Source: an uncultured archaeon (lineage in GTDB: Archaea; Asgardarchaeota; Lokiarchaeia; Sigyniarchaeales; SOKP01). From it: DNA of 64,000 bases. Positions 42,975 to 44,293 of the stretch are shown one piece after another (the stretch's first letter is position 1; each line of letters opens with the position of its first letter). A model generated the notes under the pieces. It saw only the letters and a program-made list of their open reading frames with translations, had not been told where the DNA came from and ran no database searches. Both the position numbers and the translations under genes were made by a program. Location: the NCBI GenBank assembly GCA_964583985.1, contig CAZOYD010000002.1, positions 94,267 through 158,266 on the forward strand. The letters run 5' to 3'.

Positions 42975-44293
42975 TATTTTAATCCCTCCTTGTTAGCCAT
43001 TACTATTACAGCGGCATAAGCTGCTCCTGGACCTCCAATTGAGTGAGCTATAGCCCTTCCCTTCTCAATCTGAACTTGATGTTTCCCGGCTTCTCCTCTT
43101 AATTGTAAAGCAGCTTCCCCAGTACTCATTATTCCCGTGGCACCAACTGCATGACCACATCCTATCAAACCACCGGAAGGACAACATGGAAGTTCTCCAT
43201 CCAACCAAGGACCCTCTCCAGATTTCTCGAATGTTTTTTCAATCCAAGAGCCTCCTTCACCAAAAGGGACAAATCCAAGTTCTTCATAACTGATTACTTC
43301 TTGTCCACTAAATGCATCGTGTAATTCTGCTAAATCTATTTGATTTTTAATTTTATTATAATCGAGTGATGCCATTTTATAAGCTGCTTTTGCAGCATAA
43401 ATATTTGAATAAAGTCTTCCCATATCTTCTCTATTTCCTATAAAACAATCAGTATTTGCAGCTCCTACTCCAGTTATCCAAATTGGATTTTCAATTTTTA
43501 ATTCCTTTACTTTTGCTTCACTTGCTAAAATCAATGCAGCAGAAGCTTCTGAATATAGACAGCAATCAAGCATTTTAAAAGGATAACAAATTATCCGAGA
43601 ATTCATCACATCTTCCACGGTAATTTCCATCGGAGATTGCGATTTAGGATTTAACATTGCGTTTCCATGATTTTTAACGCTCACATGAGCCATTTGTTCT
43701 TCTGTTGGATTACCAAATTCCTCATAATGAGCATTAACCATTGAAACATATGATGAGGCTGCCATCAATGGGGATATTTGGGAGTTCCAAACTATATTTT
43801 CCCATCGGATATTCTTCCGCTCATATAGTAAATAAAATAACTATACAATATACGTCATATCCGCACTATAAGCAATGGCGTTAAGTACTTCGGGAGTAGT
43901 AGTCCCCGTTTGCTCATCATAACAATCATTACATTTCTCCACACCAAGACATAGGCACAGATCAGACAACCCTGATGCTACTTCCGAATAAGCCATCCTC
44001 ACAGTATATCCTCCAGTAGCCCCTCCAGATGCAATCCGCGTACCCGGTTTATTATTCATCCCGAGATACGAATTAATAAAAATATCTGGCATGAATTGTC
44101 GTTCAAATAATTCATTATATATTCCATAGACTGTTGATTCTAAATTTTTGTGGGTTATTTCTGCACCATTCTTGTTCGCATCTTTGAGAGCGAGTTTTGT
44201 AGCATCGTAAGCGAGTTCGAAATATGTTTTATCCAAATATCTTGCTCGGAAGGGGGTGATTCCTACCCCAATAATTGCTACTTTTCTTGACAA
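42974..44293 (-). CDS. SCP-x-type thiolase-family protein, three exons: 44293-43850, 43814-43799, 43767-42974 (417 aa after splicing)
   Basis: Spliced junction YSADMTY|EYPMG(M)|MAASSY; ASGGATGG, ELHDAF, SGGLIGCGHAVGATG; the two ORF-track halves are in the same frame and the two inserts total 66 nt. Confidence 0.85.
43768..43798 (-). other. putative 31-nt relaxed BHB mRNA intron (intron C; boundaries +/-1 nt)
   Basis: Minus strand TGGG-AA|A-ATAT-AGT-TTGG-AACTC-CCAA-ATAT-CCCC-AT|T; removal is needed to restore frame after the 16-nt micro-exon. Confidence 0.72.
43815..43849 (-). other. putative 35-nt BHB/BHL mRNA intron (intron B)
   Basis: Minus strand CGGATATG-ACGT-AT|A-TTGTATAGT-TATTTTATTT-ACTATATGA-GCGG-AA|G-AATATCCG: 7-bp exon-exon helix, central helix, 9-bp intron stem. 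Confidence 0.85.

Follow-up and report, generated by a model that had tools for sequence, protein, structure and literature searches.

The thiolase-fold gene on the minus strand of the window (44293-42974), the window being the whole 64,000-nt stretch of DNA analysed, very probably gives rise to a doubly spliced archaeal mRNA with an exon of 16 nt, in which the two inserts B and C are independent short bulge-helix-bulge (BHB) introns. The host genome (G000; 3.8 Mb, 138 contigs) belongs to the Promethearchaeota (Loki-type Asgard). The gene, one of lipid metabolism, consists of two open halves that match Thiolase_N and Thiolase_C. Exon 1 (43850-44293, minus strand like all features of the gene; 444 nt, codons 1-148) opens with a TTG start that has GGTGA just upstream. 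It is followed by intron B (43815-43849; 35 nt), which has an in-frame TAG inside, by the micro-exon (43799-43814; 16 nt, GAATATCCGATGGGAA), which encodes E149-Y-P-M-G153 plus the A of M154, and by intron C (43768-43798; 31 nt), a phase-1 insert that can be placed in one way only. Exon 3 (42974-43767; 794 nt) extends from the UG of M154 through the stop. On the minus strand, these coordinates match the 16-nt segment between a 35-nt and a 31-nt insert that the initial annotation had described.

In-silico translation bears out the further proposal that only the double removal (66 nt) gives a full ORF and that skipping of the micro-exon is out of frame. The unspliced form and the form from which only C is removed reach a stop at codon 151, the form from which only B is removed at codon 175 and the form that skips the micro-exon at codon 149; removal of both inserts yields a 417-aa ORF. 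In a DNA alignment with 29 relatives, both alignment gaps fall exactly at the insert boundaries, and the doubly spliced product is 84-95% identical to same-genus orthologs. The predicted junction after both removals reads ...TAT/GAA TAT CCG ATG GGA A/TG ATG..., and the predicted junction peptide contains YEYPMGMMAASSY. A three-exon mRNA that needs two BHB-type splicing events, as had been proposed, is thus supported by the ortholog gaps, the 417-aa product and the BHB geometry. Exon skipping via a motif combining the 5' side of B with the 3' side of C was rejected, as its central helix contains only 1/4 pairs and its product is out of frame. In two metatranscriptome assemblies, whose RNA runs contain 5-7% of the words, the contigs found at 85% likeness over 29000-44500 come from relatives, span neither junction and contain no joints.

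The residue at the second junction had been left as M, L or K. Comparison with 161 distinct orthologs retains the first and eliminates the other two: 153 of them have M at residue 154 and the other 8 have V, with L and K never seen, so that the junction is fixed at the BHB cut, with A/UG encoding Met. E149, P151 and G153 are invariant in the same set, and the E and G of EYPMG fall on conserved positions when aligned to archaeal thiolases of solved structure. The BHB cuts are the sole placements that restore both E149 and M154. Furthermore, the orthologs form one 417-aa protein with a near-invariant EYPMG, which contradicts the notion that the downstream part is a separate protein starting at TTG 43768.

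Intron B forms an hBHBh' motif with an intron stem of 9 bp (p 0.83-0.96), a central helix of ACGU with GCGG (3/4 pairs, A.G mismatch) and the bulges AU/A and AA/G, the slash marking the predicted cut. Its outer helix of 7 bp pairs the micro-exon (43812-43806) with exon 1 (43863-43857), the exon-1 arm being CGGAUAU (43857-43863, minus strand). The central helix of intron C, UGGG with CCCC, uses 43804-43801, has 3/4 pairs (U.C mismatch) and is flanked by the bulges AA/A and AU/U; the stem is interrupted (4+4 bp) and the motif is of the relaxed HBh' type. The idea that the micro-exon is the source of the outer helix of B and of the central helix of C proved correct, with non-overlapping bases: B takes bases 3-9 for its outer helix, and C takes bases 11-16 for its central helix and bulge. 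A good outer helix is absent at intron C, and likewise in relatives that carry only C. The 5' end of exon 3 (43752-43767, minus strand) can form a small hairpin, GAUGG/UCAUC, which is permitted by the TCN codon for Ser158 found in 5/5 carriers of an insert at site C, the codon being AGY in most orthologs; this hairpin may take the place of the outer helix that C lacks. A clamp helix between exon 1 and exon 3 (codons 139-141/154-156; p about 0.87 in 3/4 long windows) was not borne out as an intron-specific feature, as intron-free orthologs have equally strong ones and the carriers rank 17-26 of 162. Rfam gives no match over the inserts, and a weak mir-155 match outside them is below threshold. 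A group I or II self-splicing intron or another Rfam RNA was discarded as well, the inserts being 31-35 nt long compared to the hundreds of bases of a ribozyme core.

The U.C mismatch of intron C and a competing GAUGGG/CCCAUU register, both noted beforehand, are real. In isolation, the slipped register reaches -9.8 kcal/mol versus -5.1 kcal/mol for the BHB register of C, and in long windows of G000 and of G023, a second genome with both inserts, the slipped register has a probability of 0.88-0.93 and the BHB register of C one of 0.04-0.10. According to nearest-neighbour folding, which ignores enzyme binding and co-transcriptional translation, forming B costs 0.3-1.7 kcal/mol (0.6-1.0 in the precursor), and forming C costs about 5 kcal/mol in G000 and G023 and 3-3.5 in G022, a third carrier of both inserts, where one C-to-U change abolishes the slipped register and motif C attains 0.73. 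The C motif of the C-only relatives costs about 2.5 kcal/mol. Since other comparatively well-defined BHB sites cost 0.2-6.5 kcal/mol by the same measure and a single change removes the competitor in G022, motif C falls within the BHB class, towards its weak end.

In G022 and G023, the two inserts measure 34+31 and 28+31 nt, with the ends and stems kept and the loops changed; the recurrence of the same inserts with diverged loops therefore speaks against both chance and an assembly artefact. Two further relatives, L028 (G004) and L168 (a metagenome contig), have a different 30-nt insert exactly at site C and none at B, with the same register, a central helix of 4/4 pairs and a stem of 10 bp, and in G028 a 32-nt insert lies three bases away from site B, with site C empty. 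Throughout the gene family, 28-35-nt inserts occur at coding positions 32/35, 34, 35, 381, 384, 444, 447, 460, 542, 920 and 925, and each of these sites has a protein-restoring placement with 3 or 4 central pairs. Over the 11 scored family sites the central helices contain 40/44 pairs, compared to 20.0 expected for shuffled inserts at a fixed placement (0/20,000 reach 40) and 32.6 for the best of seven placements (P=1.5e-4). This pairing joins exon and insert, so that a hairpin as such does not account for it. The insertion sites are clustered, with 4/9 neighbouring gaps of <=5 nt (P about 2e-4), a pattern in the sequences that suggests insertion hot spots, of which micro-exons would be an expected by-product. 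Unrelated inserts lie 1-5 nt apart in different genomes (positions 34/35, 381/384, 444/447 and 920/925), and of two neighbouring sites often one has a strong outer helix and the other has none. L028 (G004:C318) has four inserts (381, 460, 542 and 925) and L029 (G028:C16) three (447, 542 and 925). Insert 925 is nearly identical in lineages that are interleaved with intron-free ones, which suggests lateral spread.

The thiolase-fold gene is not the only interrupted gene of its genome. A census of about 1,100 G000 loci against the DNA of G006, G017 and G061 found eight inserts of 29-35 nt that break the frame and have BHB geometry, distributed over six genes. These include the genes for RNA polymerase A' (rpoA'; 31 nt at G000:C2:24787, minus strand), ribosomal protein uS8 (29 nt at G000:C106:4095, plus strand) and a bacterial-type leuS (30 nt at G000:C64:4266, minus strand), an SCP2-domain gene with two inserts (29 and 30 nt at G000:C66:14382 and 14276, minus strand) and a 76-nt exon between them, and a paralogous thiolase-fold gene within the window (29912-29941, plus strand; G000:C2:124178). 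The 30-nt insert of the latter has a 4/4 helix, a 9-bp stem and an in-frame stop, and the intact G006 ortholog of this gene is 92% identical. In G000, rpoA', uS8 and leuS were each found in one copy, so the cell would have to repair such messages. BHB geometry is absent from two other frame-breaking inserts (22 and 44 nt; G000:C30:33063 and C30:3336), which are probably pseudogenes or alignment artefacts, and from in-frame, stop-free indels.

The genome also has two EndA paralogs (C4 and C3), one of which reads from its sequence as having a catalytic-type motif and the other as lacking it, and one RtcB (C1). The tRNA-splicing endonuclease EndA would cleave each 3-nt bulge behind its second base, with RtcB then ligating the exons into the message for the 417-aa protein. 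The two paralogs would probably form an alpha2beta2 enzyme, a type that accepts the relaxed HBh' form (PMC4090602). The micro-exon would be the stretch that remains between two nearby insertion sites, and the B and C motifs would form together or in either order, with B folding readily and C being a weak substrate. ARAGORN detects a selenocysteine tRNA at G000:C27:19492-19584; few tRNAs are detected, and most of the other calls carry introns, which suggests that multi-intron tRNAs are missed by this program.

A more far-reaching and rather unlikely reading is that Loki-type Asgards routinely splice multi-intron mRNAs and exchange intron cassettes, and that the weak intron C gates a coupled lipid-catabolism operon. 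The tRNA machinery would then perform the splicing, exons down to 16 nt would be tolerated, cassettes would be swapped between species, and motif C would be a rate-limiting, condition-sensitive step in a translationally coupled operon.

The initial annotation had proposed ordered or conformation-dependent splicing that acts as an AND gate. In its obligate form, where the exit or refolding of one intron precedes the cutting of the other and thereby controls the operon, this is improbable, even though the motifs are 16 nt apart and have the micro-exon in common, the competing slipped register of C is kept in 2/3 carriers and B is much cheaper to form than C. Constrained partition functions for the three carriers, computed for three window sizes at two temperatures, put the coupling energy between B and C at -0.3 to +0.4 kcal/mol, and removal of B does not help C, the cost of which in G000 is 4.9-5.3 kcal/mol in the precursor versus 4.9-5.7 kcal/mol after B is removed (37 C). 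Neither motif thus needs the other intron to be gone. The suspected competition of ATATCC in intron C for the exon-1 GGATAT likewise finds little room, with a mispairing probability of only 0.00-0.18. In addition, introns at site C exist without B, the competing register is lost in G022, and the combined length of B and C is 66, 65 and 59 nt in the three carriers, so that the frame compensation is not conserved. Most orthologs are intron-free here, which argues against a conserved regulatory need, and the need for both removals is a property of any two-intron gene. With a coupling of about zero, rare mispairing, no conserved compensation and a site C that occurs without B, the locus is not a nested case of the kind described for pre-tRNAs (PMC3728597). 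A kinetic bias toward removal of B first is plausible from the modelled costs of about 1 kcal/mol or less for B and about 5 kcal/mol for C, and from the precedent of Cyanidioschyzon multi-intron pre-tRNAs, in which splicing order tracked motif stability (PMC3728597). B-first splicing would then perhaps be kinetically dominant, with the order not being enforced.

The dominance of the slipped register in G000 and G023 could also mean that B is spliced but C poorly or not at all in the G000 lineage, the gene being weakly expressed or decaying. This is quite improbable in view of the selection on the gene. Between carriers, dN/dS is 0.03-0.05 on both sides of the inserts, a whole-gene value that partly reflects an intron-free history if the cassette moved recently, and the G000 branch itself shows purifying selection with 34-44 synonymous versus 3-6 nonsynonymous codon changes. 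Over codons 135-166, G000 and G023 differ by five synonymous and zero nonsynonymous changes despite their diverged intron loops. Furthermore, no further break is present in the thiolase-fold gene of G000 or G023, and the downstream genes are intact.

Hairpin inserts of similar size are hopped by ribosomes in other systems. As both gene halves are open frames, the protein might in principle be made without RNA splicing, either by such hopping or as two polypeptides, one of 150 aa and one of 264 aa that starts at TTG 43768, but this is very improbable. Intron C lies inside a codon and has a single placement, so that matching take-off and landing codons are lacking, and a hop would yield K or L at residue 154, neither of which is ever seen. 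Two polypeptides would both lack EYPMG, and no Shine-Dalgarno sequence precedes the exon-3 start. Moreover, the four inserts of L028 speak against either version, and both leave the exon-intron pairing in the BHB register at ten sites unexplained. An assembly artefact or a DNA-level excision element is hardly credible: the genome is metagenome-assembled, but both inserts are found in three genomes with different loops, and there is neither a target-site duplication nor a copy elsewhere in the genome.

B and C appear to be passed between lineages together, as one two-intron cassette. The carriers of both inserts are three in number and probably of single origin. Gene trees nest G000 and G022 within orthologs free of introns, with G023 placed outside the 100/100 clade to which these two belong, and monophyly of the three carriers is rejected on the flanks (AU p=0.012; 36 rows, codons 125-170 left out). 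G000 and G023 are identical over codons 144-159 and elsewhere show background synonymous identity (48%). The shared stretch includes four codons outside either motif, the joint frequency of which is about 5e-4 in other orthologs, and Ser158 is encoded by TCA in 5/159 orthologs. The simplest reading of these sequences is that the intron-exon-intron block and its flanks moved by homologous recombination, the B+C pair being spread or lost as a unit together with about 90 nt of exon sequence on its flanks. The alternative history is an ancient presence followed by many losses, combined with structural constraint. The intron-free L002 (G006:C164) shares the rare upstream codons of the carriers (Ser AGC 143, Ala GCG 144 and Thr ACG 147, in a comparison of codons 136-147) and does not share their downstream codons; it may be an allele from before the insertion, in which a hairpin with a 7-nt loop was already in place, or else a recombinant that has lost both introns. 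In a search for a source copy of B or C elsewhere in G000, only AT-rich 12-18-mers were found, and a weak B-like match in G007 was rejected as an AT-rich chance match.

BHB splicing of archaeal coding sequences is documented for cbf5 only in the literature searched (PMC2738675; PMC7714728), and cbf5 was the sole such case known to the latter study. The cbf5 pre-mRNA of Sulfolobales and Desulfurococcales contains a BHB intron (Watanabe 2002; Yoshinari 2006; Yokobori 2009, PMC2738675) that, like B and C, is short, lies in a coding sequence, often has a non-canonical BHB, shows patchy gain and loss and is cleaved by a hetero-oligomeric EndA between the second and third bulge bases, as is predicted here. 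However, cbf5 has one intron at one site in one gene, whereas here two introns are separated by 16 nt, the family has about ten sites and several other genes of the same genome are interrupted, in an Asgard lineage; in addition, cbf5 splicing was shown by cDNA, whereas that of the thiolase-fold gene is a prediction from sequence. The intron in the 5' UTR of Haloferax HVO_1309 is likewise an EndA-removed mRNA intron but, unlike B and C, is 46 nt long, untranslated and single (PMC7714728). Multi-intron and nested-intron pre-tRNAs occur in Thermoproteales and Cyanidioschyzon (PMC3728597), and some Asgard classes are rich in multi-intron pre-tRNAs (PMC11291895; bioRxiv 10.64898/2026.10.13.758758), both of these papers being concerned with tRNAs and the preprint leaving mRNA unmentioned. 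They share with the present gene several BHB or relaxed HBh' motifs and very short exons between them, but here the substrate is an mRNA, in which a 1-nt error destroys the frame, and, unlike nested pre-tRNA introns, B and C each form with the other present. XBP1/HAC1 splicing (IRE1 with RtcB or Trl1; PMC4090602) is similar in being a protein-only cut-and-ligate reaction on a short frame-shifting mRNA intron, but employs a dedicated regulated nuclease and a stem-loop motif, whereas the motif here is that of the tRNA endonuclease and evidence of regulation is absent. No report of BHB introns in Asgard mRNA was found in the literature searched, which covered few subscription journals.

The three-exon mRNA with its 16-nt exon and the interrupted RNA polymerase, ribosomal protein and tRNA synthetase genes indicate that mRNA splicing in several steps, without a spliceosome, is probably already at work in close prokaryotic relatives of eukaryotes. 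In annotations, genes interrupted in this way end up as pseudogenes or fragments. As a test substrate the locus is compact, with three double-intron variants, two C-only variants and many intron-free alleles, and these natural variants make it possible to measure the order and efficiency of splicing and the retention of the micro-exon. The shared flanking codons provide a handle on the spread of introns, a question left by the tRNA census.

The canonical nucleophilic Cys of thiolases (ACASG loop) is absent here, as the GGATGG of the intact ortholog aligns to the ACASGG of 7yvy and 6esq, and the window gene carries the same GGATGG. Downstream, the gene is followed by an intact DUF35/ChsH2-like gene with a zinc ribbon and an OB-fold (42480-42974, minus strand), which overlaps the thiolase stop, and by an intact SCP2-domain gene (42106-42516, minus strand). 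The Cys-less thiolase fold retains the motifs HDAF and GH and, with the DUF35 and SCP2 genes to which it is coupled, makes up a module (42106-44293, minus strand) that we take to be probably an Ltp2/ChsH2-like aldolase or SCPx-like system rather than a canonical thiolase.
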